Shown piece after piece: positions 14,345 through 37,640 of a stretch of DNA of 56,410 bases. Within the stretch, counting starts at the first letter, position 1. Every line of letters begins with the position of its first letter. Origin of the DNA: Bacteroidota bacterium (lineage in GTDB: Bacteria > Bacteroidota > Ignavibacteria > UBA10030 > UBA6906). Position numbers and translations under genes: made by a program. The stretch is from NCBI GenBank assembly GCA_017860635.1, contig JAGDMK010000035.1:1-56410 (forward strand). Reading direction: 5' to 3'. The notes under the pieces were generated by a model. It had not been told where the DNA came from and made no database searches. It saw nothing but the letters and a program-made list of their open reading frames with translations.

Positions 14345-14595
14345 ATTGGCCGGTGAGCGCTGTTAAGCTATGGGTACAAGCTTGACTGTCACCCACGATT
14401 TCCGCATAGTGTGGGGTAACGTTTTCTCCTGTTCTCTCTATTTGAAAGCGCGATGTGATGCTCGGAGACACCCTGGCTCTTCTCCCGATCACTCCCCCCT
14501 TCCCGGGCATCGCATTCCTCCCATTCCGGCCCATTCGGGTCCGTTGTACTAGCCCAGCTCCAAACCGACATCCACTTCCCGAGGGACACATTCCC

Positions 14596-17500
14596 ATGCG
14601 GATCACCCCGCCCGCTCTGTCACGACGTTGGTTGTCGTATGTGGTGCTCTTTGTGCTTTGCCTGATGGCCACATCCGGTCTTGCCCAGCGGAAGTCCATC
14701 AAGCAGTACGTCCACCAAACCTGGACGGCCGACGACGGCCTCCCGCAAAACTCCGCGGCGAGCATTCTGCAGTCCCGGGACGGATACATCTGGTTCGCCA
14801 CGCAGGAGGGGCTGGCCCGCTTCGACGGAGTGGAATTCAGAGTGTTCGACCGGCGGAATACCAAGGAACTCCCCGCTTCCTGGTACGTCCGCATGAAGGA
14901 AGACAGTGCCGGGGCACTCTGGCTGCGACCCACAGGCTTTGCTCCGGGCATCGTCCGCTATCATGACGGGGTGTTCACGAGTTTCGATACGTCGAACGTG
15001 CTACCTCACAATCGCACCATCACATGGGAGATCGACAAACACGGGACGATGTGGATCGGCACGCTGGGCGGACTCTTCGAGTCTAAGAATGGAAAGTACC
15101 GGACTTACACCGTCAAGGATGGACTCCCCGGCGACACGGTCTTCGGACTGGGTCTGGACAGCAAGGAGAATCTCTGGATCAGTACCTCGCAGGGTCTGGC
15201 CCGGCTCACTTCAGGAAAGCTCGAGAGGATGACGGGGCTGAAGGAATTTCCCGACACAACGTTCCTGCGACTGAATGGGCCGTCCAACTGCTTTGAAGAT
15301 CGCCGCGGCACACTCTGGATGATCAAGGAGGACCGCGAAGGAAGCCTCTGGCTTGCAACGGGAAAAGGGATAGCGCGTTTCTCAGACGGGGCGTTCGAGC
15401 GGTACGACCATGCGGATGGGCTTTCGGACAACACCGTTCAGGACCTCCTGATCGATCGGGAGGGCAGCATCTGGGTCGGAACGAATGGCGGTGGTGTTGA
15501 CCGGTTTCGGGATGAGAAGTTTGTGACCTACTCATCCAAGGTGGGTCTCAACTACGACATGGTGAACACGACCCTTGAGGATCGCACCGGCGCGATCTGG
15601 ATCGGGACTTCGTTCGGCGGAATCAACAGACTGAAGGACGGCGTCATTACCGTGTTCGACAACAAGAAGGGCCCTCCGCTCATCGGAGCCCGCGCACTCG
15701 GGGAGGACGCTGAAGGGACGATCTGGATCGGCACAACCCGGGGCCTCTACACGCTCAAGAACGAAACGATCACCATGCGGTCCCGAATAGTGAACGGCGA
15801 ACCGGACATCTTGCCGGGCGCGTTCCTCCTTACAAAGGCGGGTCAATGGCTCATGGGTTCCCGGGATACATTGTTCTCGTACAAAAACAAGAAATTTACA
15901 CGGATAGCAACCGTCGGCAAACCGGGCGTTCGCGGCGACTTCATCGGGCAGCTCTTCGAGGACAGGCAGGGCACGTTGTGGATCGCTACGGAGAATCAGT
16001 TGTACAGGTTCAAAGGAGGAACTCCTGAGGCCATCGGCCTGGACCAGGGATTCACCGGTGGTTCGGTCAATGCCATGTATGAGGATCAGGAGGGAGTGAT
16101 CTGGATGGGTGCTTCGGACAATGGTCTCTTCCGGTACAAAGACGGGAAGTTCGCCTCCATCTCACCTCGCCAGGGACTGTTCGATTATCTCGCGTTCACG
16201 GTGTTTGAAGATGACGCCGGATATCTCTGGATGTCATGCAACAGGGGGGTATACCGGGTCAGCAAGCAGGAACTCAACAATGTGGCTGATGGGAAGGCCG
16301 AGTCTGTTACCTGCACTGCGTACGGGACAGCCGACGGGATGGAAAGCCGGGAATGCAATGGAGGATATTCACCATCCGGATGCAAGCTGCGGGATGGAAG
16401 ACTCTGCTTTGTGACCACCAGGGGTCTTGCAGTCGTGAACCCTGCGGACATCCGTATCAACAACGTTCCTCCGCCCGTCGTGATCGACCGGTTCCTGGTG
16501 GAAGGGGAACGGCAGCCTTCGACGGAAAGCGTCCGGGTGCCGGCGGGAAAAAGCAGATTTGAATTCCATTATGCCGGGATCAGTTTCACCGGCTCGAATG
16601 ATGTCCGGTACAGGTATCAACTATCCGGACTCGACAAAGGGTGGATCGATGCCGGTTCGCGCCGCGATGCGTACTATACGCATCTCGATCCGGGCGAGTA
16701 CACATTCCGCGTCATTGCAGCCAACAGCGACGGCATTTGGAACGAAGCGGGCGCGTCCGCGAGCTTCGTGCTGGAACCGCACTTCTACCAGACCGCATGG
16801 TTCATCGGACTTGTGGCCTTCGCCTTCCTGACTGCGGGACCTTCCTTCTATTTTTACCGGATGCGGAGCATGAAGCGGAGGCGGGCGGAGCTGGAACACC
16901 TCGTGCAGGAAAGGACAGGAGAGCTTCAGAAAACCCTGAACAATCTCAAGGAGACTCAAAACCAGCTTGTGCTCTCCGAAAAGATGGCATCACTGGGGCA
17001 ACTCACTGCCGGGATCGCCCATGAAATCAAGAATCCTCTGAACTTCATCACGAACTTTTCGGTGCTCTCGCACGACCTCACGAAGGACCTCCGCAAGGAG
17101 CTTGCCGCGGAGAGGGACCGTGTGGATCCCCAGAGGGCTGCCGAAATCGAGAGTCTCCTGAGTGATCTGGAACAGAACGTGGCGAAAATCAATGAACATG
17201 GGAAGCGTGCCGACAGCATCGTCAGGGGCATGCTGCTCCATTCACGGGGCAAATCGGGAGAACGGCAGGAGACCGATCTGAACGCCTTACTCGCCGAATA
17301 TACGAACCTGGCGTACCATGGCATGAGGGCACAGGACCAGACGTTCAACGTAAAGATTGAGACCGACTTCGATCCCACGGTCGGCAAGGTGAGTGTCGTC
17401 CCGCAGGACCTGAGCAGGGCTTTCCTGAATATCGTGAACAACGCCTGCTATGCTGCGAACGACAAGAAGCGATCACTGAAGAATGGCTTTGTTCCCATTG

Positions 17501-17778
17501 TGCGTGTGAGCGCGAAGAGCCTTCCAGGAAGTATCGAAATACGCATCAGAGACAACGGAAACGGAATTCCGCAATCCGTGCGGGACAAGATCTTCAACCC
17601 GTTCTTCACTACGAAGCCCGCCGGCGCGGGGACGGGACTCGGCCTTTCCCTCTCCTATGACATCATCACGCAGGAACACAGGGGCGAGATCAATGTGGAT
17701 ACGAAAGAAGGGGAGTACACGGAGTTCATCATCACCATACCCCGGAACCCCACGAACGAGAAAGGAATTCGGGCATGA
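14596..17778 (+). CDS. Sensor histidine kinase with a large periplasmic two-component-regulator beta-propeller / Y_Y_Y sensor
   Basis: ORF 14455..17778, with the start moved to ATG 14596, which has GAGGGA upstream and a signal/TM segment (LSYVVLFVLCLMATSGLAQ). It contains repeated Reg_prop-type blocks (DGLPQNSAASILQSRDGYIWFATQEGLARFDG and others) and a YYY-like region (FEFHYAGISFTGSNDVRYRYQLSGLDKGW). A TM helix follows, then a coiled coil, the H-box GIAHEIKNPL, and the HATPase N and G boxes (NIVNNACYA; DNGNGIP; GTGLGLSLSYDI). Confidence 0.85.
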   Translation: MRITPPALSRRWLSYVVLFVLCLMATSGLAQRKSIKQYVHQTWTADDGLPQNSAASILQSRDGYIWFATQEGLARFDGVEFRVFDRRNTKELPASWYVRMKEDSAGALWLRPTGFAPGIVRYHDGVFTSFDTSNVLPHNRTITWEIDKHGTMWIGTLGGLFESKNGKYRTYTVKDGLPGDTVFGLGLDSKENLWISTSQGLARLTSGKLERMTGLKEFPDTTFLRLNGPSNCFEDRRGTLWMIKEDREGSLWLATGKGIARFSDGAFERYDHADGLSDNTVQDLLIDREGSIWVGTNGGGVDRFRDEKFVTYSSKVGLNYDMVNTTLEDRTGAIWIGTSFGGINRLKDGVITVFDNKKGPPLIGARALGEDAEGTIWIGTTRGLYTLKNETITMRSRIVNGEPDILPGAFLLTKAGQWLMGSRDTLFSYKNKKFTRIATVGKPGVRGDFIGQLFEDRQGTLWIATENQLYRFKGGTPEAIGLDQGFTGGSVNAMYEDQEGVIWMGASDNGLFRYKDGKFASISPRQGLFDYLAFTVFEDDAGYLWMSCNRGVYRVSKQELNNVADGKAESVTCTAYGTADGMESRECNGGYSPSGCKLRDGRLCFVTTRGLAVVNPADIRINNVPPPVVIDRFLVEGERQPSTESVRVPAGKSRFEFHYAGISFTGSNDVRYRYQLSGLDKGWIDAGSRRDAYYTHLDPGEYTFRVIAANSDGIWNEAGASASFVLEPHFYQTAWFIGLVAFAFLTAGPSFYFYRMRSMKRRRAELEHLVQERTGELQKTLNNLKETQNQLVLSEKMASLGQLTAGIAHEIKNPLNFITNFSVLSHDLTKDLRKELAAERDRVDPQRAAEIESLLSDLEQNVAKINEHGKRADSIVRGMLLHSRGKSGERQETDLNALLAEYTNLAYHGMRAQDQTFNVKIETDFDPTVGKVSVVPQDLSRAFLNIVNNACYAANDKKRSLKNGFVPIVRVSAKSLPGSIEIRIRDNGNGIPQSVRDKIFNPFFTTKPAGAGTGLGLSLSYDIITQEHRGEINVDTKEGEYTEFIITIPRNPTNEKGIRA

Positions 17779-18167
17779 AGATCATGATCGTCGACGATGA
17801 GCGTGATGTAGAGATCCTCTTCCGCCAGCAATTCCGCAAGGAAGTCAAAGACGGACGCGTCGAGCTGTGCTACGCCTTCTCTGGCGAGGAGGCCCTGGAT
17901 TACCTCCAGACCGTCAACCCTCCCGATGTCGTGTGTATTCTTTCGGACATCAACATGCCGGGTATCACCGGACTCGACCTGTTGAAGGCGGTCAAGGAGA
18001 AATACCCGGGCATCAGGGTCTCGATGATCACCGCGTATGGTGACGAGCTCAACTTCAAGACGGCCATGTCAGCGGGCGCGGAGCACTATTTCACCAAGCC
18101 GATAGACTTCGACCAGGTGAAGCGGAACGTTCTGATCCTCGCACCTGCTACTGCCCAGGGATCATGA
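17775..18167 (+). CDS. Stand-alone response-regulator receiver (CheY-like) protein
   Basis: ATGA overlap with the kinase stop. The receiver-domain residues are present: MIVDDE, the phospho-acceptor context ILSDINMPGITGLDLL, and FTKPIDF. Confidence 0.9.
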   Translation: MKIMIVDDERDVEILFRQQFRKEVKDGRVELCYAFSGEEALDYLQTVNPPDVVCILSDINMPGITGLDLLKAVKEKYPGIRVSMITAYGDELNFKTAMSAGAEHYFTKPIDFDQVKRNVLILAPATAQGS

Positions 18168-18170
18168 TCC

Positions 18171-19361
18171 ATGTCAGGGAAGGATATCAGCGTGCCACCG
18201 AGAATTCTCGTTGTTGACGATGAGCCGGATCTCGAACTGCTCATCAAGCAGCGTTTCCGGAAACAGATTCGGGAAAACGAACTCGCGTTCGAGTTTGCAC
18301 AAAATGGCGTCCATGCACTCCAGAAACTGGATGAGCACGGGGACATCTCCGTCATTCTGTCGGATATCAATATGCCCGAAATGGACGGACTGACCCTCCT
18401 GGAGAGGGTGAGTGAACGGAACAATCCGGCCATTAAGTCGGTCATCATATCGGCCTATGGCGACATGGAGAACATCCGGACTGCCATGAACCGCGGGGCC
18501 TTCGACTTTCTGACGAAGCCGATCGACTTTGTCGATCTGGAGCTCACGGTGCAGAAGACCATGCAGCAACTCGAGATCATAAAGCATGCGATGACGGTGA
18601 GGGATGAACTCGTGGCCGTGCAGAGGGACCTGAGCACGGCGACCCGCATCCAGCAGTCATTGCTTCCGAAGACGTTCCCTCCGTTCCCCCATCGCCCCGA
18701 GATCGATCTTTATGCGGAGATGATAACGGCAAAGCAGGTCGGCGGCGACTTCTACGATTACTATTTTATCGATGAAGAGCGTCTCGCCTTCACGGTCGGA
18801 GATGTCTCCGGGAAAGGCATTCCGGCTGCCATCTACATGGCCGTCAGCCGCACGCTCCTGAAGGCGATCGCCCATCAGGTCGTCAATCCGGGTGAGGTCC
18901 TCAGAAAGCTCAACACGCTGTTGATCCCGGAAAGCGAGTCTGCCACGTTCGTGACGGTGTTCTTCGGCGTGCTGAACATCCGTTCGGGAGAGCTGCAATA
19001 CAGCAACGGCGCACACAACGCCCCATTTCTCCTGAGAGCTGGTGGCGGCATCGAAGAGCTTCCGCTGACAGAGGGTTCGATTCTCGGGAAGATTCCTCAT
19101 CTCGATTTCGATACAAGGAGAGTGAAGCTCCAGAAGGGCGACACGCTCTTCCTCTATACAGACGGCGTGAGCGAGGCAATGGATCCGGAAAGCAATCAAT
19201 ATGGCGACGACCGGCTGAAGGGATATCTGGCGTCAACGAACGGGTCCAGCATCGAAGAACTGGTCAAGAACAACCTCGCAGATGTGAAGAAGCACACGCG
19301 TGACGCGCTGCAATCCGACGATATAACAGTTCTTGCGCTGCGCTATCGGGGAGTGCCGTGA
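18171..19361 (+). CDS. Response regulator fused to a PP2C/SpoIIE-type Ser/Thr phosphatase (RsbY/RsbU-like)
   Basis: The N-terminal REC domain shows LVVDDEPD, ILSDINMPEMDGLTLL and LTKPIDF. The C-terminal SpoIIE/PP2C domain shows GGDFYDYYFIDEERLAFTVGDVSGKGIPAAIYMA, LFLYTDGVSEA and DDITVLALRY. It starts 3 nt after the previous stop. Confidence 0.9.
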   Translation: MSGKDISVPPRILVVDDEPDLELLIKQRFRKQIRENELAFEFAQNGVHALQKLDEHGDISVILSDINMPEMDGLTLLERVSERNNPAIKSVIISAYGDMENIRTAMNRGAFDFLTKPIDFVDLELTVQKTMQQLEIIKHAMTVRDELVAVQRDLSTATRIQQSLLPKTFPPFPHRPEIDLYAEMITAKQVGGDFYDYYFIDEERLAFTVGDVSGKGIPAAIYMAVSRTLLKAIAHQVVNPGEVLRKLNTLLIPESESATFVTVFFGVLNIRSGELQYSNGAHNAPFLLRAGGGIEELPLTEGSILGKIPHLDFDTRRVKLQKGDTLFLYTDGVSEAMDPESNQYGDDRLKGYLASTNGSSIEELVKNNLADVKKHTRDALQSDDITVLALRYRGVP

Positions 19362-19447
19362 GGTTCCCTGTGCATGGGGATCAGACGTGGTCTCCGCATT
19401 TGCCAACAGGCGACTTACCTGAGGTTCCCTCAGCATGGGGACCAGAC
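19359..19447 (+). repeat. Two 28-nt direct repeats (TGAGGTTCCCTgtGCATGGGGAtCAGAC / TGAGGTTCCCTcaGCATGGGGAcCAGAC) 61 nt apart
   Basis: Copy 1 spans 19359-19386 and starts with the TGA stop of the REC-PP2C gene. Copy 2 spans 19420-19447. 25 of 28 positions are identical. Each copy has a short TCCC...GGGA inverted element. Confidence 0.7.
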
Positions 19448-19770
19448 ACCTGTGCGCCTGTGAACGTGTGTATAGGCTTTGCCCGTCTTCCTGATCCTCG
19501 TATTTCCCTGAAGGTCTGAAGCAGGGCAGTTCTGCACTGCCACGAACAACCGCACTCCTCCCACTCTGATGGAATCCACCTGGGCATGCCGATATAGTGC
19601 CTGGGCAGAGGGATCCCGCCCGTTCGTCACCAGCATGGCTAATCCTTAGATTCCGCCTGGCTCAGACAAAGTCATGCTAAAAGTCTGAGATTATGTAAAA
19701 TAGCGCAGAATCAGGTTTTCCAGGTCCGGGCGTTTCAATGTTTCCCACATATTTAAGTGAACGTTAACTC

Positions 19771-19800
19771 TTGACTTTCTGGATGTGCTATCTGTAAATT
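19771..19800 (+). promoter_or_regulatory. Candidate sigma-70-type promoter of the TonB-receptor operon (TTGACT-N18-TAAATT)
   Basis: TTGACT at 19771-19776 and TAAATT at 19795-19800, about 130 nt upstream of ATG 19928. A similar TTGACTTT box occurs at 53081 upstream of the GPH transporter gene. Confidence 0.35.
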
Positions 19801-19927
19801 GAACCGGTTAGACCGTTCAATCTCGTTCGATTGCCGTTGTCCATACCCCGCCGAACGGCGCCATACGTTCACGATACACAATAGATTCTGCGCCCACCAT
19901 GCCCACATGGGGAGGAGTCACTGCGAA

Positions 19928-22900
19928 ATGGAACGATTGACAAGGGCGATTGCACTGACGCTGCTGCTTGCGTTGCTTGCCTCTCCGCCTCTCAAGTCGG
20001 GTGAAACCGGGAAGGTTGCCGGGATAATAACCGATAAAGTCACCGGTGAAGCCCTGACGGCTGCCAATATCTCAATCGTCGGCACCTCCATGGGAGGAGC
20101 TGCGAACCTCGAGGGACAATACACCATCCTCCATGTCCCGCCCGGCACCTATAGCCTGCGCGTTTCCCTCATCGGTTACACCACGGTCACCCTCAATGAT
20201 GTGCGAGTGTACATCGACCAGACAGCAAGAGTCGATGTCGCCCTCGCATCCGAATTGATCGAAGGGAGGGAGGTCGTCATCGTTGCAGAAATGCCGACGA
20301 TCAAGAAAGACGTGGCGACGAGCGTCGTTGCCGTGACCGCAAACGAGATTTCCTCTCTTCCTGTGACGAATGTCGTGAGCGCCATCGGCCTGCAGGCGGG
20401 CATTCGCGGCGGATGGGGAGGGCCCGCGGGATATGCGTCTGCGCCGTCCTTCATCTCAAACTACCAGAGAGGAACAGTCAGCGTCAACCAGGGACCCAGC
20501 ATCCGGGGAGGCGGAGGAGACAATGTGCTTTTCATGGTCGATGGCGTCACCATGCGTGATCCGCGCAACAGCGAACCGATGACCAGAGTGCCGTTGAATG
20601 CCGTCCAGGAAATCTCCGTCGAGCGCGGTGGATTCAATGCTGAGTATGGCCAGGTACGCTCCGGTGTCATCAACGTTATTACAAAGGAAGGAGCCAAACG
20701 CGGCTACGCGGGAGGACTTCAGTTGCGCGTACTGCCGCCGCAACCGAAATACTACAAAGTTGACGGTGTTCGAGATGTCACCGACCCCTACTCCTTTGCA
20801 TTGCGCCCGTTCTTTGATCCTGATGTGTGTTGGACAGGCACGGATAACGGGGCGTGGGATACCTACATGAGGGCGCAGTATCCGGAATTCTCCGGGTGGA
20901 ATGCAGTTGCGCGGGTCATGAACACGGACAACGATCCGAACAACGATGTAACCCCGCTTGGTGCGCAACGCATCTTCATGTATGAGACCCGCAAACGGCA
21001 AATCAACAATGAGCCCGACTTCGACATCGATGCCGGCTTCGGCGGGCCGGTCCCGTTCATCGGTGAAGCACTGGGGGATCTGCGTTTCTACGGGTCATAC
21101 CGCAGCACCCGCGAGATGTTGCTCTTCCCTCTTACCAGGCCGGACTACCGTGACTTCGACGCGAATCTGCGGGTGAATGCCGACATCACACCCACCATGA
21201 AACTGCAGGTCTCTGGTGCCTTCGGGAAGCAGTATACCATCAGGCACAACTGGGATGGCACCGGAACATACTTCTTTCCGCGCTACCCGAACGACATTGC
21301 GGGTGTAAGCAGCTACATCGGCAGCTCCACAGATCTCCTGCTCATGTTTTCCGATTTCGCCTTTGCGCTTGCCGATGTCGGCCATCAGTCCGCGGCGGCA
21401 CGATTCACCCACACCATCAGCTCCAATACGTTCTACGAAGTCGCATTGGAACACTTCAGACGCGATTACTGGGTCCGTCCGCCTGCCGTAAGGGACACGT
21501 CACAAAAGTACGAAGTCATTCCGGGTTTCTGGGAGGACTCGAATCCGTTCGGTTATTGGCCGTACGACGTCAATGGAGTCCTGCTCCCGGGAGCTAGCCG
21601 GGAGTTCGTCAGTAGAGCCCGCGACAACAGCGTGATGAACACGACAACGATTAAAGGGGATCTCACCAGCCAGATCAACTTCCATAATCTCCTGAAAGCC
21701 GGTGCCGAGTTCGTGTACAACGATCTCGATTTCGACTACGGCACGATCGGCGGGGCCTCGCAGGACCAGGTCTATTCCGCGCGGGTCCAGAAGAGAGTCT
21801 TCCCGCTGAGGGGGGGGCTCTACCTGCAAGACAAGCTCGAGCTGGAAGAGTTCACGGTCAACGCCGGCTTGCGGCTTGAGTACACCAACTCGAACGTCGA
21901 CTGGTGGGCGGTCAGCGCCTACGACCAGTCATTCTTCTCCTCCAAGTACAACTCGGTCACGGAATACGCCACGGAGGCATCCAAAGCACAGTGGACTCTC
22001 AGTCCCCGCCTCGGCATCTCGCATCCCATAACGGAGGACGCAAAGCTCTTCTTCAACTATGGCCACTTCAAACAACTGCCTCAGTATGAGACGTTATTCC
22101 GGGTGCAGCGGACATCGCAAAACGCGATGACGAGCTTCGGAGACCCGAACCTCATCCTGGCCAAGACCATTTCGTACGAACTGGGATTCGACTACCTCGT
22201 GTTCGATGACATCCTGATTCAAATGGCCGGCTTCTACAATGACATCACCGATCAGCAGGACTTCACGGTATTCTCCGGCACGGTGGGCGGCTTCTCGTAC
22301 ACGAAGTCTACTTCCAACAACTACCAGGACACCCGCGGATTTGAGCTGACAATCCGCAAGAACACCGGAAGGTGGTGGACAGGCTTTGCCAACTACACGT
22401 ACCAGGTAAATACGTCAGGGCACTTCGGGAGTTCGCGGTATTTTGACTCAAAGGGAAGCCAGGCCACATGGGATGCGCAGACGTCGAATCTCTACCAGGA
22501 CCGGCCGATTCCGCAACCCTATGCCCGAGTGAATCTCTATCTGCAGACACCGGAGGATTTTGGGCCGGAGATATTCGGCCATCACATCCTCGGCGGCTGG
22601 GGCTTGAATACGCTGTTTGACTGGCAGGCTGGTTACTGGACCACCTGGAATCCGAGTAGTCTGCCGTACGTCGCATACAACGTCAAGTCGGTGGACTTCT
22701 ACAACCTCTACATGCGATTGGAGAAGATGGTGGATATCGGCAAGTTCAAGGTACAGCTCTTCATGGATATCAACAACGTGTTGAACACGCTCCGCCTGTC
22801 TACCACCAACGATCAGGAGTACATGAAATCGCTGCACCTGCCGACCAGCCCCGACTACAACAACATCCCCGGTGATGACAAGGTAGGCAACTACAGGGAG

Positions 22901-23158
22901 CCTGGTGTGGCCTATCAACCGATGGAGAACGGCGTGGATTTCACACAGGCCGGGCTCAAAGGCGTCATCTACTATCAAGGCTCGAGCGGCAACTACTACG
23001 AGTACGTGAACAGCCAGTGGCAGCAGGTCGAGCAGGGCCGGCTGAACAGGATCCTGGAGGACAAGGCATACGTCGACATGCCGAACGCGGACACATACTG
23101 GTTCCTCGATCCTCGAAGGGTCTACTTTGGCCTGAAGGTCTCATTCAACTTTGACTAA
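19928..23158 (+). CDS. TonB-dependent outer-membrane receptor with an N-terminal carboxypeptidase-regulatory-like domain
   Basis: ORF 19799..23158, with ATG 19928 after GGAGGAG. Its parts, in order:
- signal peptide MERLTRAIALTLLLALLASPPLKSG
- CarboxypepD_reg-like block GKVAGIITDKVTGEALTAANISIVG...GTYSLRVSLIGY
- plug blocks IRGGGGDNVLFMVDGVTMRD and VERGGFNAEYGQVRSGVINVITKEG
- a long beta-barrel-type sequence ending YFGLKVSFNFD. Confidence 0.85.
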   Translation: MERLTRAIALTLLLALLASPPLKSGETGKVAGIITDKVTGEALTAANISIVGTSMGGAANLEGQYTILHVPPGTYSLRVSLIGYTTVTLNDVRVYIDQTARVDVALASELIEGREVVIVAEMPTIKKDVATSVVAVTANEISSLPVTNVVSAIGLQAGIRGGWGGPAGYASAPSFISNYQRGTVSVNQGPSIRGGGGDNVLFMVDGVTMRDPRNSEPMTRVPLNAVQEISVERGGFNAEYGQVRSGVINVITKEGAKRGYAGGLQLRVLPPQPKYYKVDGVRDVTDPYSFALRPFFDPDVCWTGTDNGAWDTYMRAQYPEFSGWNAVARVMNTDNDPNNDVTPLGAQRIFMYETRKRQINNEPDFDIDAGFGGPVPFIGEALGDLRFYGSYRSTREMLLFPLTRPDYRDFDANLRVNADITPTMKLQVSGAFGKQYTIRHNWDGTGTYFFPRYPNDIAGVSSYIGSSTDLLLMFSDFAFALADVGHQSAAARFTHTISSNTFYEVALEHFRRDYWVRPPAVRDTSQKYEVIPGFWEDSNPFGYWPYDVNGVLLPGASREFVSRARDNSVMNTTTIKGDLTSQINFHNLLKAGAEFVYNDLDFDYGTIGGASQDQVYSARVQKRVFPLRGGLYLQDKLELEEFTVNAGLRLEYTNSNVDWWAVSAYDQSFFSSKYNSVTEYATEASKAQWTLSPRLGISHPITEDAKLFFNYGHFKQLPQYETLFRVQRTSQNAMTSFGDPNLILAKTISYELGFDYLVFDDILIQMAGFYNDITDQQDFTVFSGTVGGFSYTKSTSNNYQDTRGFELTIRKNTGRWWTGFANYTYQVNTSGHFGSSRYFDSKGSQATWDAQTSNLYQDRPIPQPYARVNLYLQTPEDFGPEIFGHHILGGWGLNTLFDWQAGYWTTWNPSSLPYVAYNVKSVDFYNLYMRLEKMVDIGKFKVQLFMDINNVLNTLRLSTTNDQEYMKSLHLPTSPDYNNIPGDDKVGNYREPGVAYQPMENGVDFTQAGLKGVIYYQGSSGNYYEYVNSQWQQVEQGRLNRILEDKAYVDMPNADTYWFLDPRRVYFGLKVSFNFD

Positions 23159-23180
23159 TCGCAGACAAAAAGGGGCATCC

Positions 23181-25316
23181 ATGATACGACGAACAGTCAG
23201 AGTGCGCGGTTGGCTCTCTCTGTGCGCGATAGTATGCTTGACAGCGCTTGTGATTTCCCTGGGCCAGGCTCAAGAGATCCGGTGGCTCCGTGTCGGCGAC
23301 CTGCAGTCGTTTGTGACCGACATCGGTGTTGAGTATGAGGGCCAGCCAACGACGGGGAATTCAAATTTCCTCTCCTGGCCTGCGCTGTATAGTATCGACC
23401 AGAACACCCTCCGCGGGAGACTCCTCTGGATCGGCTGCAAGAATTTCAACGATCCGGTGGAGAAAAAGCTGAAGCCGGTCAAGATGATTGGAGCCGGTCT
23501 GCGTGATTTCGATGACCGTCCAAACCAGATCTTTGTCCAGGAGATCACGCTCGTTGGCCGGAGCACGCATCCGACAGTGACCGTGGACAATGCGAGTGCC
23601 ACGGATCTCGACCAGTACGACGACCTTGATGAGCTGGATCCCTCTCTTCCTTGTGACCGCATGGTGCGAGTACGTTTCAACACCTCGATCGGCATCTCCG
23701 TCACGAAAAAGATCATGGCTTTCGCGAGTTCGCGGCACGGGAATTACTTCATTCACGACTACGTCTTCAAGAACACCGGCATCTACAACAGGGCCGGCGC
23801 AGTTCAATCGCAGACCCTTGACAGCACATGGTTCTACTTCGGGCAGAGGTACGCATTCGCGGGCGTCAGCTCTTCGGGATGGGGTTCATCCTGGGGAGCC
23901 TTCGCTTCCTGTTGGGGACATACCACGCTCTATCATACGTTTGGCGAAGATCCCACCTCTCCGGAATACACACACGCCGGCGCTCCGATGAGAGGATACA
24001 TCTCGTACTATGGCCCAAGTCCCGAGAGCAATCAGTCACTCCTTGCCTACGCGGAGGACTGGGGCTGCCCGGACTTCACCGGCAGGACAGGGATGCTGGG
24101 CTCGGCGAAATATGCGGGCTGCATTACCCTGCACGCCGATGCCGGTCCGGCGAATTCAGCTGACGATCCGTATCAGCCGAGGACGACCTGGTTCATCGGG
24201 AGCGACATCCAGGCAATGCAGAGCAGCGGGTCGAGCCAGTATGATAATCTGCTGATGGCTGACCGATATTCCATAGTTACGGAAGGCCACCCGCCCGGAA
24301 GTTATGACGAGGCTGTCGGCGATGGCAACTATGCGAGCGCCTACGGTGACGCGCGGCGGCAGAACGCCTTGCAGGGCCAGGGTTTCGGTCCGTACAGGCT
24401 TGCTCCCGGCGATAGCATCCACATTGTGTTTGCCGAAGGCGTGTCCGGGATTTCCTGGGAGAAGGGGAAGGAAGTGGGGGGCAACTGGCTCAGTTGGAAA
24501 ACCGCCACTGCTCAACCGACCCTCACCATGCCGAACGGCTCAACCACCACAGACCATAACGTGTACAAACGCCGGTGGGTGGAAACCGGAAGGGATTCTC
24601 TCCTCGCCACGTATCGCAATGCGATGGACAACTTCCGGTCGGGGTACACGGTTCCTCTGCCTCCGCCCCCGCCAAGCTCGTTCACCGTGGAATCCGGCGG
24701 CGACAGGATACGGCTAACGTGGGCAAGCAACGCGACCAGCGACCCGCACTTCGGTGGCTATGTCGTCTTTCGATCGAGGGGCACTGTTCAGGACTACCGG
24801 ACTTCGTACGAGAAGGTATTTGAATGCGGCAAGAGTGGTGTGGTCCACGAATTCAACGATGTCACTGCGATTCGCGGGTTCAACTACTTCTACTACGTCC
24901 AATCGAAGGATGACGGGACGCAAGTTGCCGGGACGATACTGTACAGCAGTCCATTCTGGACAATCACTGCGACGTCGAGCCCGGCTACGTTGCAGCGGCC
25001 TGCGGTGACCTCAACGCTCGATTCCGTCCGCGTGGTCCCGAATCCGTTTGACATCCGCGGCAGGTTTTTGCAGTTCGGCGACCGTTCCCAGTATGACCAG
25101 CTCTCTGTCTACGGCCTGCCACCGGTGGCGACGCTGAAGGTGTTCACCGAGCGGGGCGATCTGATCTGGCAGAAGGAGCACACACGCGGGACCGGAGACG
25201 TGCTCTGGACCTCGCAAACCTCTTCGGGGCAGATCATCTCCAGCGGCGTATACATCCTGGTTGTGTCGACACCGGACAATCGGTCGGTCATTCGAAAATT
25301 CGTTGTGATAAGGTAG
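23181..25316 (+). CDS. Secreted hypothetical protein (711 aa) with an FN3 domain and a T9SS-CTD/FlgD-Ig-like C-terminal beta-sandwich
   Basis: ATG 23181 follows AAAAGGGG. The signal peptide is MIRRTVRVRGWLSLCAIVCLTALVISLGQAQE. The ~480-aa N-terminal region has no motif I recognise. An FN3-like block follows (PPPPPSSFTVESGGDRIRLTWASNATSDPHFGGYVVFRS). The C-terminus is VRVVPNPFDIRG...ATLKVFTERGDLIW...ISSGVYILVVSTPDNRSVIRKFVVIR. Confidence 0.7.
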   Translation: MIRRTVRVRGWLSLCAIVCLTALVISLGQAQEIRWLRVGDLQSFVTDIGVEYEGQPTTGNSNFLSWPALYSIDQNTLRGRLLWIGCKNFNDPVEKKLKPVKMIGAGLRDFDDRPNQIFVQEITLVGRSTHPTVTVDNASATDLDQYDDLDELDPSLPCDRMVRVRFNTSIGISVTKKIMAFASSRHGNYFIHDYVFKNTGIYNRAGAVQSQTLDSTWFYFGQRYAFAGVSSSGWGSSWGAFASCWGHTTLYHTFGEDPTSPEYTHAGAPMRGYISYYGPSPESNQSLLAYAEDWGCPDFTGRTGMLGSAKYAGCITLHADAGPANSADDPYQPRTTWFIGSDIQAMQSSGSSQYDNLLMADRYSIVTEGHPPGSYDEAVGDGNYASAYGDARRQNALQGQGFGPYRLAPGDSIHIVFAEGVSGISWEKGKEVGGNWLSWKTATAQPTLTMPNGSTTTDHNVYKRRWVETGRDSLLATYRNAMDNFRSGYTVPLPPPPPSSFTVESGGDRIRLTWASNATSDPHFGGYVVFRSRGTVQDYRTSYEKVFECGKSGVVHEFNDVTAIRGFNYFYYVQSKDDGTQVAGTILYSSPFWTITATSSPATLQRPAVTSTLDSVRVVPNPFDIRGRFLQFGDRSQYDQLSVYGLPPVATLKVFTERGDLIWQKEHTRGTGDVLWTSQTSSGQIISSGVYILVVSTPDNRSVIRKFVVIR

Positions 25317-25327
25317 GGAGCGCAGCG

Positions 25328-26380
25328 ATGAACTACCGTCAGAGTTTGCGTACGATAACCCTCGGCGTGCTGCTGGTCTGCATGGTGGCCGCTCCGGCAT
25401 CCGGGCAGGAGAATCAGAAACTGGCGCAGAGCGGTTTTCAGTTCCTCGGCGTGGTGTCGGATGCCCGCGCGGCAGCGTTAGGGGAAGCCATGACCAGTCT
25501 CCGGTCCGGCTCGAGCGCGCTGTTCTTCAATCCGGCCGGGATGGCCGGGATGAACGGTGATTTTGATTTCACTGCGAGCACAAACAAGTGGATAGCGGAT
25601 ATCACGCATACTACGTTCAGTGCGGCGGTGAATCCATGGCACGGCGACTATGGGATCCTCGGTTTCAGCATCCAGCACATCGACTACGGTGAGTTCCTGG
25701 GCACACGCGTCAACAGTGCAAGTCCGAAGGGTTACGATGATACCGGCACATTCTCCTTGAGCGCACTTGCCCTGGGACTCGGGTACGCGAAGCAGCTTTC
25801 GGAGCGATTCAGCGTTGGAGCGCATGTACGCTGGGTGCGGCAGGATCTCGGAGAAAGCATGACAGCGGTGAACATCCAGACATACTTCCCGGGGACAGAT
25901 TCGAGCTACCGGGTTGCGGACACGGTCTTCGTCAGCAACAAACTGTCGCCACTCGTGTTTGACTTCGGAACGCAATTCAAGACCGGTTTCAAAAGCCTGG
26001 TCTTTGGCATGTCGGTGCGCAATTTCTCCGGAGAGGTCGAATACGCGTCCGAAGGCTTTCAGGCACCGCTGGTGTTCACGTTGGGAATTTCCATAGATGT
26101 GATGGACTTCATCGAAGGTCTTTCGCCGGACCATTCATTGTACTGCAGCATCGATGCGAGTCATCATCGGGATCATCCAGAGCAGCTGAAAATCGGATTG
26201 GAGTACACGCTGATGGATCTGCTCAGTCTGCGGGCCGGGTATGCTTCGAGCAACAACGATGAGACGAACTTCTCTTATGGTATTGGAGTCTCCAAGTACG
26301 GTATCGCCTTTGACTATGCCTACACGCCATACGGAGTATTTGACGCGGTTCAGAGAATGACCGTGCGGTTTTCCTACTGA
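25328..26380 (+). CDS. PorV/PorQ-family-like outer-membrane beta-barrel protein
   Basis: It starts 11 nt after the previous stop, with a GGGAG RBS. The signal peptide is LLVCMVAAPASGQ. The N-terminal block AQSGFQFLGVVSDARAAALGEAMTSL..SSALFFNPAGMA resembles the PorV/PorQ (FadL-like) family signature. It has alternating beta-strand character and ends with an aromatic residue (..MTVRFSY). Confidence 0.65.
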   Translation: MNYRQSLRTITLGVLLVCMVAAPASGQENQKLAQSGFQFLGVVSDARAAALGEAMTSLRSGSSALFFNPAGMAGMNGDFDFTASTNKWIADITHTTFSAAVNPWHGDYGILGFSIQHIDYGEFLGTRVNSASPKGYDDTGTFSLSALALGLGYAKQLSERFSVGAHVRWVRQDLGESMTAVNIQTYFPGTDSSYRVADTVFVSNKLSPLVFDFGTQFKTGFKSLVFGMSVRNFSGEVEYASEGFQAPLVFTLGISIDVMDFIEGLSPDHSLYCSIDASHHRDHPEQLKIGLEYTLMDLLSLRAGYASSNNDETNFSYGIGVSKYGIAFDYAYTPYGVFDAVQRMTVRFSY

Positions 26381-26398
26381 TCCGGGGAAGGAAGAACT

Positions 26399-27646
26399 AT
26401 GAAGAATCCAAGGCGCCTGGTGACAGCCGCGGCCATGAGTGTGACGGGCTTCCTTGTGCTTGCGGCGGGTTGCTCGTATGATGTAGCAGCCCCGCTATGG
26501 GAGCAACCGTATTCGGCCCCGCCAACGCCCAGCATTACCAGCATTCAACCGGCATCTGCCCCCGCCGGGGTGAACACCATCCTTATTGCCGGGCAGAATC
26601 TAAGCGGCGTGCCCATGAGCAACGGCGTGTACTTCGATATCACCCCTGCAGACATTGTCCAGAAGTCGGCTACGGCCATCACCGTGCGCAGGCCTTCCTT
26701 GGCGACGAGTTCATGCACGGTGAACCTGGTGTCTGACAGCGCACTTGTCGTTGCCAAGATCTCATTCGGCAACATCGACCTTGTGATGGATCGCGTGGGT
26801 AATTTCCTGGACAACGTCGCACTCGCTGCTGTCGTGGTGGACAGTGCGGAGAATCTCTTTGTTATTTCGGGAGTGACGCCGGTATCGATCTGGAAAGTAT
26901 CGACGGGCGGCGACAAATCAGCGCTCATGACCAGCGGGATCACCGTGAGACCGCCGTTCGATGCAGCGCTGAGGAGCGGGGTGCTCTATCTGACGAGCAG
27001 CAACAGGGAAATACAGCAGGTCAACATTGCGACAGGGGTCGTCTCACGATGGACGCAACTCCCGGCAGGAAGGGTTGTGAAGGTGGGCGACTTCGACGCA
27101 AACGGATACTTCTATACAGGCGGCGCTGCTGGCGGCGATCTCTGCGTCATCCCTCCCAATCCGCCGACAACGCTCACGCTCGCTCAAATAACGCTGTCAG
27201 GATTCTATGCCGCCGACGAGATTCTCGCCGTCCGGGTCTTCAAAGGGTATCTCTATGTGGCCTCCAAAGCCACCGGGCAGACTGCGGGAAAGATCTGGCG
27301 GCACGCGCTTGGGAATGCCGGACAGCTGGGAACGCAAGAGCTGGTCCTTGATCTCAGCGCGCATGCCACCTTTGCCGCCCGGCAGGTCAAGGCGATCTCT
27401 CTTTCCGCATCGGGAGTACTCTATGTAACGACGGACGCGGAAAACCCGCTGCTCGTTTTCGATCCCGCCAACGGCAGCCTGGACTATTTCTACAAGGGCA
27501 TTGTTCCTCCCTATGGCAAGCACGCCGGCTGGGGGCGCAGCGTCTATCTGTATATGATCAGCGGGGACATTGCAAACACCAACACCGCTCTGCGATGGAA
27601 CGTCGCACGGGTGAATATGGGCACCCCCGGTGCCTCGAGCCAATGA
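26399..27646 (+). CDS. Lipoprotein with an IPT/TIG domain followed by a probable beta-propeller
   Basis: It starts 18 nt after the previous stop, with a GGAAGGAAG RBS. The lipobox is FLVLAAGC. The IPT/TIG-like block is PSITSIQPASAPAGVNTILIAGQNLSGV...ATAITVRRP. The remaining ~300 aa carry repeated strand motifs (..LYVTS.., ..GYFYTGG.., ..LYVASK.., ..LYVTTD..). Confidence 0.7.
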   Translation: MKNPRRLVTAAAMSVTGFLVLAAGCSYDVAAPLWEQPYSAPPTPSITSIQPASAPAGVNTILIAGQNLSGVPMSNGVYFDITPADIVQKSATAITVRRPSLATSSCTVNLVSDSALVVAKISFGNIDLVMDRVGNFLDNVALAAVVVDSAENLFVISGVTPVSIWKVSTGGDKSALMTSGITVRPPFDAALRSGVLYLTSSNREIQQVNIATGVVSRWTQLPAGRVVKVGDFDANGYFYTGGAAGGDLCVIPPNPPTTLTLAQITLSGFYAADEILAVRVFKGYLYVASKATGQTAGKIWRHALGNAGQLGTQELVLDLSAHATFAARQVKAISLSASGVLYVTTDAENPLLVFDPANGSLDYFYKGIVPPYGKHAGWGRSVYLYMISGDIANTNTALRWNVARVNMGTPGASSQ

Positions 27647-27711
27647 TCCCTGTATGAGCATCAGATTGCATCCGGGGCGAGTCTCTTAGAACAGCCAAAG
27701 GTTTTCACGCG

Positions 27712-27749
27712 AAAAAGGGTCGGAACGGGATTTCTGACCGTCCTTTTTT
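27712..27749 (+). terminator. Probable rho-independent terminator after the four-gene outer-membrane module
   Basis: AAAAA, then GGAACGG, a 9-nt loop and CCGTCC (a 6-bp stem with one bulge), followed directly by TTTTTT at 27744-27749. Confidence 0.5.
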
Positions 27750-27811
27750 CATACCGTTCAGCGGGATGCAGCGTCCGTGCCTGTCACGTTGTGAACGAAG
27801 GGGTCAGCGCA

Positions 27812-30652
27812 ATGGAGAAGAATCCCTGGTCCGCCATCCTTCTGGCGGCATGTCTGATCGCGCCACATGTCTCCCCGGCGCAGGAGAAACACGCAGATGG
27901 CATGCTGTTCGAACTCGTAGGGCAGAAGGAGACCGATCCCCGGTATATGAAAATCCAGATTTGCACGGAGAAGATTGTCCGTGTGATCGCCGCAAAGGAG
28001 AAGGACTTCTCTCTCCGCCCGAGTCTGATGGTTCAAAAGGCCTCATGGGACCCTGTCCCCTGGTCGGTGCGCGAGAAGACTGATCTGGTGGAAATCTCCA
28101 CGTCCAAACTGATGGTCCGGGTTCATCGGCGCACCGGGGCGGTGTCGTTCTTCGATGCGGCCGGCCGGCTGCTCCTGAAGGAGAAGGACGGCGGGGGAAA
28201 AGTGCTTACTGCAACAGAGGTCCTGGGGGAAAAGACGTGGCACATCCAGCAGCTCTTTGACTCCCCGGCCGATGAGGCATTCTATGGCCTGGGTGCGCAT
28301 CAGAGCTCACTGATGAACTACAAGGGATACGATGTGGATTTGCAGCAGCACAATATTGTCGACGTCATTCCCTTTCTCGTTTCGAACAAGCAGTACGGAA
28401 TCCTGTGGGACAACTACTCCCGTACGAAGTTCGGAGACACCCGGGACTACCAGCCGTTGTCGACCCTGAAGCTTTTCAATGCGCAGGGCAAACAGGGCGG
28501 GCTAACCGCCGAGTATTTCCGCAATGCGCAGTTCGGCTCGCTGCTGACGTCACAGACGGAAGCGACCATTGCGCACGAATATGTCGATTCCATGGGCACA
28601 TTTCCGGACGGGTTCAACCTCACTACAGGGAGCATTCGCTGGAGCGGTACCATTGGGTCCCATGAGGCGGGGACGCACAAGTTGCGGGTCTATTCCTCTT
28701 CGTACTTGAAACTCTGGCTGGATGGCAAGTTGATGGTCGACTCATGGCGGCAGAACTGGCTGCCGTGGATACACGAGCTGCGCCTGCCCATGAAACCCGG
28801 GAAACGATATCCGATCAGAATCGAATGGATACCCAACGGCGGAAATGTAGGGCTGACATGCCTCGGCCCTGAGGACCCCGTGTATCACAAGAGTCTTTCA
28901 CTCTGGTCCAATGTCGCCGATCAGATCGATTACTACTTTATCCATGGAAAGAATCCCGATGAGTTGATCCGGGGATACCGTACGGTGACGGGCCGAGTCC
29001 CTCTGATGCCCAAATGGGCGATGGGCTACTGGCAGAGCCGCGAGCGATACCGCTCACAGGATGAACTCCTTTCCGTCGTGCGGGAATTCCGTCGGCGGCA
29101 GTTCCCCCTCGACAATATTGTGCAGGATTGGTTTTACTGGAAAGAAGACCAGTGGGGGAGCCATGAGTTCGACTCCACGCGATTCCCCGATCCGGCCGGC
29201 ATGGTGAAGCAACTCCATGATACCCTTCACGCCCGCATCATGATCACAGCCTGGCCCAAATTCTATGTGGGGACGAAGCACTATGAGGAGTTCAGGGAAA
29301 AGGGATGGCTCTACATGCACAACATCGAGAAGGGTGTGCGCGACTGGGTGGGACCGGGATACGTGTCGACTTTTTTTGATCCTTTCAGCAGTGAGGCAAG
29401 AGATCTTTACTGGGCGCAGATCAACGATAAGCTCTTTCGCTTAGGAATCGATGCCTGGTGGCTTGATTCCACAGAGCCGGACCTTCAATCCAACGTGTCG
29501 CCTACCGAAACGCTCCTGCGCATGCACCCGAATGCACTGGGTACGGCGGCCCGATACGAAAACGCATATTCCCTGATGATGACCAGGGGTGTGTATGAGA
29601 ACCAGCGCAAAACCTCGCCCGACCAGCGCGTCTGTATCCTCACCCGATCGGCATACGCCGGGCAGCAGCGCTATGCGTCCGCGACCTGGAGCGGAGACGT
29701 GGCCACACGCTGGTACGACCTGGGAGCACAAATCAAAGCCGGGCTGAACTTCTCGCTCTCGGGCATCCCATACTGGACAACCGATATCGGCGGATTCGCG
29801 GTCGAGCCGCGCTACGAGCATCCAAACGATGCTGACCTGGATGAATGGCGGGAGCTCAACACGCGGTGGTTCCAGTTTGGGACGTTCTGTCCGCTGTTTC
29901 GCTCGCACGGGCAGTTTCCACTTCGCGAACCATTCAATCTGGCTCCCGACGGTCATCCTGCGTATCAGACCCTGCTTGCCTATACCAGACTCCGCTACCG
30001 CCTGATGCCCTACATCTATTCCCTCGCCGGAATGGTCACGCAAAGCGATTATACCATCCTGCGGGCCCTTGTCATGGACTTCGGTAACGACAAACGCGTC
30101 GCGAACATCGGCGACCAATTCCTGTTCGGTCCGGCGCTGCTGATCAATCCGGTAACGTCCTACAAGACAAGAGCACGTCAGGTCTATCTTCCCGCTGGCG
30201 CCGGGTGGTACGGACTGAGATCCGGTGTGCACTACAGAGGAGGCCAGACGATCCGGGCGGATGCGCCTTACACGGATATCCCGATATTTGTGAAGGAAGG
30301 GTCCATTGTGCCGTGCGGTCCCGAGATCGAGTATACGGATCAAAGGCCTGCCGATCCCATCAGGCTGTTCGTCTACACTGGCGCCGATGGGTCGTTCACA
30401 CTGTATGAAGATGAAGCGCTTAACTACAACTACGAAAAGGGCGCGTACGTGAGCATTCCGATGACGTACAGCGAGAAAGACACGCGTCTGACAATCGGAG
30501 AACGCAAAGGTGAGTTTCCTGGAATGCTCAGGAATCGCACGTTCGAAATCGTGTGGATCGGCAAAGGGAAGCCCGCCGGTATGGATTTTTCCGGAAAGCC
30601 AGACGCGGTGGTGAGCTACGATGGAACTCCACAATCGATCGGCATGAGGTGA
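27812..30652 (+). CDS. Glycoside hydrolase family 31 with an inserted PA14 domain (alpha-xylosidase-like)
   Basis: ORF 27791..30652, with ATG 27812. The signal peptide is MEKNPWSAILLAACLIAPHVSPAQE. A PA14-like block is present (LTAEYFRNAQFGSLL....IRWSGTIGSHEAGTHKLRVYSSSYLKLWLDGKLMVDSW). The GH31 nucleophile block is GIDAWWLDSTEPD, and ATWSGDV is the second catalytic-region block. Confidence 0.9.
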   Translation: MEKNPWSAILLAACLIAPHVSPAQEKHADGMLFELVGQKETDPRYMKIQICTEKIVRVIAAKEKDFSLRPSLMVQKASWDPVPWSVREKTDLVEISTSKLMVRVHRRTGAVSFFDAAGRLLLKEKDGGGKVLTATEVLGEKTWHIQQLFDSPADEAFYGLGAHQSSLMNYKGYDVDLQQHNIVDVIPFLVSNKQYGILWDNYSRTKFGDTRDYQPLSTLKLFNAQGKQGGLTAEYFRNAQFGSLLTSQTEATIAHEYVDSMGTFPDGFNLTTGSIRWSGTIGSHEAGTHKLRVYSSSYLKLWLDGKLMVDSWRQNWLPWIHELRLPMKPGKRYPIRIEWIPNGGNVGLTCLGPEDPVYHKSLSLWSNVADQIDYYFIHGKNPDELIRGYRTVTGRVPLMPKWAMGYWQSRERYRSQDELLSVVREFRRRQFPLDNIVQDWFYWKEDQWGSHEFDSTRFPDPAGMVKQLHDTLHARIMITAWPKFYVGTKHYEEFREKGWLYMHNIEKGVRDWVGPGYVSTFFDPFSSEARDLYWAQINDKLFRLGIDAWWLDSTEPDLQSNVSPTETLLRMHPNALGTAARYENAYSLMMTRGVYENQRKTSPDQRVCILTRSAYAGQQRYASATWSGDVATRWYDLGAQIKAGLNFSLSGIPYWTTDIGGFAVEPRYEHPNDADLDEWRELNTRWFQFGTFCPLFRSHGQFPLREPFNLAPDGHPAYQTLLAYTRLRYRLMPYIYSLAGMVTQSDYTILRALVMDFGNDKRVANIGDQFLFGPALLINPVTSYKTRARQVYLPAGAGWYGLRSGVHYRGGQTIRADAPYTDIPIFVKEGSIVPCGPEIEYTDQRPADPIRLFVYTGADGSFTLYEDEALNYNYEKGAYVSIPMTYSEKDTRLTIGERKGEFPGMLRNRTFEIVWIGKGKPAGMDFSGKPDAVVSYDGTPQSIGMR

Positions 30653-30654
30653 CA

Positions 30655-37199: not shown

Positions 37200-37640
37200 A
37201 GAATTGCTCCTTTGTGAATGGTGAGACTGCTGTGAATGTGAGCTGCAAAAGCGAACAGTCAATATTCCGTTTTACCGCTAACTGTATCGCTAACTATCGA
37301 GGATGAACGAAAGAAATTCGTTGACTTGGGAATCAATTGCTCGAGAGTTTTCCCAGGGATCCTGCTGACCGAAAATGAGGTGTGGGGATCGAATTCATGT
37401 GAATCTTGGATAAATCTATTAGAAAGTCAAGTCTTTTTTCTGGAATTGGCCACATTTAGCCACATTCGGTGATCGCCGCCCGGTCTGCACCAGTTGCGTC
37501 GTACGAGGGTCGATGTGAAGGGCGGGCGGAGCGGCAGGTGAGCCGTGAGGGCTACACTCCGTTGAACCGCCGCTTAAACCTCTTGTCTCGAGGTGCTGTC
37601 TAATTACGAAGCTTCCTAACAAATCACCAAGGAGGTACAG

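Follow-up and report, generated by a model that had tools for sequence, protein, structure and literature searches.

A SusD-less outer-membrane module with a T9SS-type protein and a PorV-family barrel, conserved beside glycosidase genes in Ignavibacteriota and other phyla

How might plant sugars be captured and taken across the outer membrane at a carbohydrate locus that carries no susD gene? The question is raised by a DNA stretch of 56,410 nucleotides (nt) from a Bacteroidota bacterium of the class Ignavibacteria (contig JAGDMK010000035.1 of assembly GCA_017860635.1; hereafter the window, at its full length), in which four consecutive genes coding for a TonB-dependent transporter (TBDT), a secreted 711-residue protein (P711), a PorV/PorQ-family β-barrel and an IPT/TIG lipoprotein precede genes coding for glycoside hydrolases (GH). 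Prediction of polysaccharide utilization loci (PULs) and much glycan-ecology inference rest on the susC/susD pair. Our analyses revealed that the four genes are a conserved unit across several phyla that are related to Bacteroidota, located beside genes for carbohydrate-active enzymes (CAZymes) and sugar regulators. On balance, and with some reserve, we favour the reading that they constitute one outer-membrane module for nutrient capture and import, which would fill the role of SusC, SusD and the surface glycan-binding proteins (SGBPs) for a xyloglucan-type CAZyme locus; the module is probably an undescribed way to capture and import plant sugars without a SusD partner.

The four genes and the element that follows them are arranged in the window as follows:
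19928..23158, plus strand: TBDT of 1076 amino acids (aa) (Pfam and NCBIfam domains, synteny)
23181..25316, plus strand: P711, secreted, 711 aa, from an unnamed family (translation, profile searches, AlphaFold2)
25328..26380, plus strand: 350-aa outer-membrane β-barrel of the PorV/PorQ family, a paralogue specific to the module (NF033709, PDB, synteny)
26399..27646, plus strand: IPT/TIG lipoprotein of 415 aa (lipobox Cys, Pfam, synteny)
27718..27749, plus strand: terminator-like hairpin (stem-loop 27718-27739) and then a T6 run, 3' of the fourth gene (terminator scan)

The list of open reading frames (ORFs) and their translations confirmed the four plus-strand genes at the positions given by an initial annotation made from the sequence, together with the gaps of 22 nt (23159-23180), 11 nt (25317-25327) and 18 nt (26381-26398) between them, and the hairpin with T6 described there as closing the block was recovered by the terminator scan. 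A Shine-Dalgarno-like GGAGG lies just 5' of the TBDT start codon. Since the terminator scan overall found 14 candidates against 11.4 expected in shuffled sequences, and the promoter scan likewise gave no enrichment, the operon boundaries are only suggested. An Rfam scan of positions 19300-28000 gave no match. The 566-nt gap 5' of the TBDT gene contains a 27-nt motif, GAGGTTCCCTnnGCATGGGGAnCAGAC, in two plus-strand copies 61 nt apart (19360-19386 and 19421-19447), the first of which overlaps the stop codon of the preceding gene (receiver-PP2C); no copies are expected by chance, and the motif had no Rfam match.

Scanning one genome per species yielded 76 loci, and the neighbours of 83 P711 copies were then searched by tblastn with the window proteins. 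The metagenome-assembled genomes (MAGs) that carry them are labelled Ignavibacteriota/Melioribacter (Melioribacteraceae), KSB1/Zhuqueibacter, Calditrichia, Neomarinimicrobiota and 'Bacteroidota'. The TBDT gene was directly 5' of the P711 gene in 71 of 74 cases, the PorV-family barrel gene directly 3' of it in 47 of 50, and the IPT lipoprotein gene came next after the barrel gene in 41 of 44; these synteny counts rule out a chance gene order, and conservation of the four-gene order in relatives, which the initial annotation had named as a test, thus extends across phyla. Gene calls made independently on public contigs reproduced this order, with GH31 and then GH2 or other glycosidase genes after it. 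Tandem duplication of the module is common (L002, L013, L041 and L051/L078), and several copies occur in one genome. The sole true exception to the module order, locus L076 (CAZSDW010000006.1), reads IPT lipoprotein, TBDT, P711 and then sugar catabolic genes.

Pfam analysis of the first gene product showed a signal peptide, a CarboxypepD_reg-type N-terminal extension, a Plug domain (PF07715, 40.1 bits, cutoff 23.9) and a large OMP_b-brl_3 barrel (PF14905, 60.8 bits, cutoff 27), which places it in the TBDT superfamily, as first proposed. Its score with the SusC/RagA model TIGR04056 was 65.8 bits against a cutoff of 368.25, with residues 29-257 alone matching. Judged by its domains, the TBDT is laid out like SusC, with an N-terminal extension, a plug and a barrel of roughly 1000 aa, and is of a different subfamily. 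A candidate TonB box, REVVIVAE, judged by eye only, stands after the N-terminal extension and before the plug. The PDB sequence search with the TBDT was uninformative, the N-terminal extension alone being matched. Comparison of identity matrices gave r 0.91 between TBDT and P711 and r 0.87 between the P711 N-terminal domain (N-domain) and the TBDT barrel; the latter remained at a partial r of 0.77 with the PorV-family barrel controlled for, and the value for TBDT and IPT lipoprotein was 0.47. The co-divergence of TBDT and P711 may also reflect a shared history of the paralogues.

No SusD/RagB match was found by the Pfam scan among the four module proteins (to E 0.1) or among the other gene-like window ORFs of at least 190 aa (to E 0.001), and SusD families are absent from the 25 commonest Pfam families of 82 ORFs flanking related modules. 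Within the window ORFs scanned, the earlier statement that no SusD/RagB-like gene follows the receptor therefore holds. GH31 and GH2 genes adjoin the module, but with no susD and a TBDT below the SusC cutoff the locus falls outside the canonical PUL definition of the PULDB type. Because PUL prediction in PULDB requires a susC/susD tandem (PMC5753385), that resource would miss the module. The susCD pair has been described as scarce in the CAZyme clusters of Ignavibacteriales and absent in Kapabacteria (PMC10576277). Our search of the full-text literature found no account of the module, many subscription papers, including the original description of Rosettibacter, lying outside its coverage.

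The second gene product is built of the following parts:
residues 1-30, plus strand: signal peptide (translation)
about residues 31-490 (nt 23271-24650), plus strand: β-supersandwich N-domain, with a poly-Pro linker after it (AlphaFold2 and Foldseek)
about residues 500-600 (nt 24678-24980), plus strand: FN3-like domain (AlphaFold2 and Foldseek only)
about residues 617-711 (nt 25029-25313), plus strand: PorZ-like type IX secretion system (T9SS) C-terminal domain (CTD) (profile scores, AlphaFold2)

The signal peptide is of the signal peptidase I type, without a lipobox. P711 belongs to no Pfam family and, the CTD apart, had no match in Pfam, NCBIfam or the PDB sequences; a SusD-like or otherwise characterised family, a possibility that the initial annotation had raised, was thus looked for in these searches and none was found. 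Assignment of P711 to SusD or to a known family was ruled out, as it has no SusD match, a β-supersandwich rather than an all-α TPR-like fold, and no lipoprotein signal. We detected 669 homologues (50-74% identity) in MAGs of KSB1, Melioribacteraceae and Ignavibacteriales, all annotated as 'hypothetical', and a profile search of 1.84 billion representatives collected 386 clusters at E<1e-30, so that the family comprises at least 386 clusters at 50% identity. Rosettibacter primus and R. firmus, both in culture, are represented by proteins in one cluster. A partial member of the same cluster, MEM3373248.1, was deposited as 'Candidatus Anstonellales archaeon' and probably comes from a mis-binned bacterial contig.

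The AlphaFold2 model of the N-terminal 468 residues, computed from 63 aligned homologues, had a pLDDT of 90.6 and a pTM of 0.92. Foldseek searches of the PDB with the N-domain gave partial matches (TM 0.27-0.36, E down to 2.5e-7) to the non-catalytic N-terminal β-supersandwich of GH94 phosphorylases, dextran dextrinase, GH116 and cyclic glucan synthase, and to one non-enzyme, the periplasmic domain of YidC. The model has no catalytic domain, and the (α/α)6 domain of the fold relatives is absent. In the full-length model the poly-Pro linker is followed by two C-terminal β-sandwiches aligning with FN3 pairs and with PorZ. The original description of P711 as an FN3 and CTD-like protein was therefore retained in part: the CTD is PorZ-like and just below the T9SS cutoff, and the FN3 domain is supported by the AlphaFold2 model and Foldseek alone.

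Profile analysis of the window CTD gave 20.5 bits with TIGR04183 (cutoff 23), no reported PF18962 match and 29.4 bits with the C-terminus of the PorZ model; a precomputed PF18962 hit exists for two P711 homologues. The sole PDB match of the P711 family profile was the PorZ CTD (5m11, E 5e-4). The CTDs of ordinary cargo proteins in the window, taken as a control, gave 30-51 bits with TIGR04183 and at most 16 with the PorZ model, and this pattern was reversed in three of the four module CTDs tested (window, L001 and L009: PorZ 16-33, TIGR04183 20.5 or less); the tail of the fourth, from L042, matched neither model. The pair does not belong to the type B CTD and PorP/SprF families, since P711 scored 15.6 bits against a CHU_C cutoff of 27 and the barrel had no PorP/SprF model match.

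The third gene product is a member of the PorV/PorQ family, as it had been labelled (NF033709, 175.7 bits against a cutoff of 90, coverage 35-349), and it lies far below the equivalog cutoffs for PorV (NF033710, 72.9 vs 250), PorQ (NF033711, 81.8 vs 220) and PorV2 (47.7 vs 325). We propose it as an anchor or shuttle of the P711 CTD. Its only solved relative in the PDB is PorV of F. johnsoniae (6h3i_F, E 6e-6). Homologues of the barrel are named 'PorV/PorQ family protein' by NCBI, and those of P711 'hypothetical protein'. An ordinary FadL/OmpP1 transporter, the identity that the initial annotation had regarded as fatal to its proposal, was ruled out by the PorV/PorQ model scores.

Conservation was expressed as mean pairwise identity over 31 complete modules and the window. 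The CTD was the best-conserved part of P711 (0.72, with 0.64 for the FN3 domain and 0.54 for the N-domain), unlike what would be expected of an ordinary cleaved cargo signal. Among whole proteins the PorV-family barrel was the best conserved (0.63), followed by the TBDT (0.58) and the IPT lipoprotein (0.42).

Variants of P711 were also compared. Long members of the family (1100-1600 aa) share the N-domain and carry in addition modules of the CBM5/12, β-helix/pectinesterase-like or BNR kind; at their C-terminus stands an ordinary PF18962 tail (five of the six tested passed this model), and one of them is located 3' of a complete module without a barrel of its own. Copies of the family without the conserved CTD (L034, L071 and L074) had no TBDT neighbour in any of the three cases, and the barrel was also missing beside L034 and L071, the two with enough downstream sequence. 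In PorZ and PorU the CTD is kept and is seated on PorQ and PorV, respectively, and cognate PorV-like barrels have been proposed to protect CTDs from cleavage (PMC10202324). By analogy, we infer that the P711 CTD stays on the dedicated PorV-family barrel. The earlier suggestion that the barrel tethers the CTD protein thus agrees with the strong conservation of the CTD, its likeness to PorZ and the missing barrel beside variants with an ordinary or absent CTD; on the other side, a mirror-tree analysis of CTD and barrel gave no specific signal of co-evolution (partial r 0.09 with the TBDT controlled).

Analysis of the fourth gene product identified a lipobox (LAAG-C), a TIG domain (35 bits) and DUF6923 (34 bits, cutoff 27). 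Of the initial description as a lipoprotein with an IPT/TIG domain and a probable propeller, the lipobox and the TIG domain stood, with a repeat-rich C-terminal region matching DUF6923, and the propeller is weakly supported. A motif C-[EKS]-Y-D-V-A-E-P-x-W is conserved after the lipobox, and one homologue contains DUF5074. The search of PDB sequences with this protein was uninformative. It is the most variable component of the module, as expected of a substrate-facing protein, and by analogy it is a candidate substrate-specific binding protein or lid; BtuG is a propeller lid on BtuB, a non-SusC transporter (PMC10404256).

Around the module, the window carries the following genes:
14455..17778, plus strand: sensor histidine kinase with a periplasmic sensor of the hybrid two-component system (HTCS) type (Reg_prop, Y_Y_Y, HisKA, HATPase_c; Pfam)
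17775..18167, plus strand: stand-alone response-regulator receiver (Pfam Response_reg, 77.9 bits)
18171..19361, plus strand: receiver fused to a PP2C (SpoIIE) phosphatase (SpoIIE 173 bits, Response_reg 81.5 bits)
27791..30652, plus strand: GH31 α-xylosidase with a PA14 insert, start codon uncertain (Pfam)
30553..33096, plus strand: GH2 glycosidase (Pfam)
33215..35161, plus strand: 648-aa T9SS cargo protein with a type A CTD, no recognised catalytic domain
35370..37262, minus strand: 630-aa T9SS cargo protein with a type A CTD, no recognisable catalytic domain

The GH31 and GH2 genes reported downstream of the block were upheld by Pfam, and the gene at 33215-35161, which had been called GH51-like, proved to have a T9SS CTD only, its similarity to GH51 being faint (E 0.6 and 0.08). 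The GH31 protein scored 965.6 bits with BoGH31A (5jou) and 852 bits with CjXyl31A. In the xyloglucan locus of Bacteroides ovatus the α-xylosidase is BoGH31A, and because of this close homology, together with the role of the B. ovatus locus, the locus in the window was read as one for xyloglucan oligosaccharides. No obvious endo-xyloglucanase was found among the window ORFs scanned. With 100 nt (30553-30652) the longest GH2 ORF runs into the end of the GH31 gene, so the true GH2 start is probably later; GH31 itself has alternative starts, the GTG at 27791 and an ATG a few codons further on.

The HTCS-type kinase has neither a fused receiver nor an AraC domain, so that the regulators are not a one-piece hybrid two-component system. 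The kinase is the probable regulator of the locus, and the set of kinase, receiver and receiver-PP2C proteins hints at a partner-switching output. At least 14 other loci have homologous HTCS-type kinases adjoining the module. Full-length homologues of the 648-aa cargo protein occur beside the module in nine other loci and those of the 630-aa protein in eight, in MAGs with differing phylum labels; PDB sequence searches with both were uninformative, and both may be surface enzymes or binders that work with the module.

Elsewhere, frequent neighbours of the module are GH31 or GH2 homologues and HTCS-type kinases, with a xylose-isomerase-like protein, an FGGY kinase and an aldose epimerase as additional ones. 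The Pfam census of the 82 flanking ORFs counted 22 T9SS tails, 7 LacI, 6 GDSL esterases, 4 σ54 activators and 2 GH43. A gene coding for a roughly 650-aa protein with DUF362 and a FlgD_ig/Por_Secre_tail CTD (L002:14955-16940, L011:14615-16588, L027:14837-16792) often lies directly 3' of the IPT lipoprotein gene in other loci. Further from the module, the window encodes a 2007-aa probable T9SS surface protein with Big_1, TIG, CarboxypepD_reg-like and FlgD_ig-type tail domains (6587-12610, minus strand), an extracytoplasmic function (ECF) sigma factor and zf-HC2 anti-sigma pair (38192-39552, plus strand), and then a Peptidase_C39-like protein with a T9SS tail (40524-42236, minus strand).

In the reading that we favour, P711, a Sec-exported protein, would pass the outer membrane via the T9SS. 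Its PorZ-like CTD would remain uncleaved and bound to the dedicated PorV-family barrel, like PorZ on PorQ and PorU on PorV, and this pair of barrel and CTD would stand in place of the lipid anchor of SusD. The FN3 domain, acting as a spacer, could set the supersandwich domain over or beside the TBDT, where it may help to hold or hand over oligosaccharides, and the variable IPT lipoprotein might serve as substrate-specific binder or lid, as BtuG does on BtuB. TonB-driven import would then bring xyloglucan oligosaccharides to a periplasmic GH31 α-xylosidase and GH2, the locus being turned on by the upstream HTCS-type sensor kinase. More tentatively, it is possible that in several non-Bacteroidota phyla of the Fibrobacterota-Chlorobiota-Bacteroidota (FCB) group the main glycan importer is such a four-part 'utilisome', with a transporter partner delivered by the T9SS, an anchor provided by a PorV-family barrel, and P711 as a functional analogue of SusD.

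Several observations weigh against one joint module. For the proposed complex of TBDT, P711, barrel and lipoprotein the support from synteny and co-divergence is indirect, the structures being single-chain predictions, and surface exposure of the IPT lipoprotein is presumed. The CTD of the window P711 is below the curated T9SS cutoffs (20.5 vs 23, with PF18962 not reported), and the CTD-barrel partial r of about 0.09 means that co-divergence does not single out this pair. Locus L076 has a TBDT and a CTD-bearing P711 with no barrel within 22 kb. The low TM values of the N-domain make a carbohydrate-binding fold merely a hint, and the high conservation of P711 among paralogous modules with different enzymes argues against a substrate-specific binder, the usual role of SusD.

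The four genes could instead be co-regulated and yet form two physically separate units, the TBDT with the IPT protein as its lid or binder, and P711 with the barrel as a T9SS adhesin or glycan-binding pair away from the transporter. A cargo gene followed by the gene of its dedicated barrel is known for type B substrates of the T9SS (review PMC10202324), lids formed by propeller lipoproteins are known on non-SusC TBDTs (PMC10404256), and the IPT gene can stand 5' of the TBDT gene, as in L076. We regard this arrangement as rather unlikely, since adjacency of TBDT and P711 is the most conserved link of the module, their divergence is coupled well above that of TBDT and IPT lipoprotein, also when the barrel is given, and the P711-family copies without the special CTD lose their TBDT neighbour along with the barrel.

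That P711 is itself an enzyme, of a new family of surface glycoside hydrolases or lyases that the barrel only anchors, appears improbable. The protein is very highly conserved, numerous Asp, Glu, Trp, Tyr and Arg positions being invariant, its fold relatives other than the YidC domain all come from CAZymes, and an endo-xyloglucanase is not obvious at the locus; but the structural matches are to a non-catalytic N-terminal sandwich whose (α/α)6 catalytic partner P711 lacks, the sequence searches outside the CTD were empty, and conservation about equal beside different enzyme sets is unexpected for a substrate-specific enzyme. Very improbable in our view is a general or non-glycan uptake system, for peptides, lipids or cofactors, with the barrel as a FadL-type channel and the CAZymes adjoining by coincidence. 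PorV-family proteins are FadL homologues (PMC12578637) and some flanking genes are non-carbohydrate (TPR proteins, σ54 activators, peptidases), yet the barrel matches the PorV/PorQ models and not those of FadL transporters, the genes that recur beside the module code for GHs, esterases, LacI, HTCS-type sensors and sugar catabolism, and P711 variants bear CBM5/12 and pectinesterase-like modules.

Comparison of the favoured four-part module with known systems showed partial likeness to several of them. The SusC/SusD PUL 'utilisome', as in the B. ovatus xyloglucan locus, has the same sequence of a SusC-sized TBDT, surface-protein genes and CAZymes, and shares with the module an HTCS-type periplasmic sensor nearby, multiple paralogous loci per genome and a GH31 close to BoGH31A. 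It differs in that the module has no SusD, its TBDT fails the SusC/RagA model (65.8 vs 368), its second gene codes for a β-rich T9SS-type protein while SusD is an α-helical lipoprotein, and a PorV-family barrel is an integral, conserved part. The PorZ-PorQ and PorU-PorV pairs of Porphyromonas gingivalis likewise combine a CTD-bearing surface protein with a PorV/PorQ-family barrel, and the P711 CTD is closest to that of PorZ; however, the module barrel scores under the equivalog cutoffs of both PorV and PorQ, its passenger is not related to either PorZ or PorU, and the module pair is multi-copy and found in nutrient-uptake loci beside a TBDT, whereas those pairs are single housekeeping components of secretion.

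In SprB-SprF, a type B CTD cargo with a PorP/SprF-like barrel, the barrel gene is also immediately 3' of the cargo gene and its product is thought to handle or anchor the cargo, but the module barrel is of the PorV/PorQ family and the P711 CTD scores higher on the type A and PorZ models than on CHU_C. BtuB-BtuG of Bacteroides resembles the module in that a non-SusC TBDT is encoded with a β-rich, potentially capping lipoprotein, which in the module carries a repeat domain; the likeness is one of arrangement, not of sequence, and the module differs in its glycan rather than vitamin context and in two extra conserved components, P711 and the barrel. The CUT loci (carbohydrate utilization loci centred on TBDTs) of Xanthomonas and other Proteobacteria are, as the module, SusD-less and associated with CAZymes; to our knowledge they lack T9SS-type surface proteins, PorV-family barrels and IPT lipoproteins.

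Sediments, soils, hot springs and digesters harbour abundant Ignavibacteriota, KSB1, Calditrichota and Marinimicrobia, which have many CAZymes and few susCD pairs. Since cultured carriers exist (Rosettibacter primus and R. firmus), the idea is directly testable. If true, the conserved, multi-copy module would be a marker for the polysaccharide loci of these four phyla, and a role would be assigned to a large family of 'hypothetical proteins', that of P711. The uses of PorV-family barrels would widen from secretion housekeeping to the anchoring of nutrient-transporter parts, and components of the T9SS would be directly and structurally coupled to TonB-dependent nutrient uptake.

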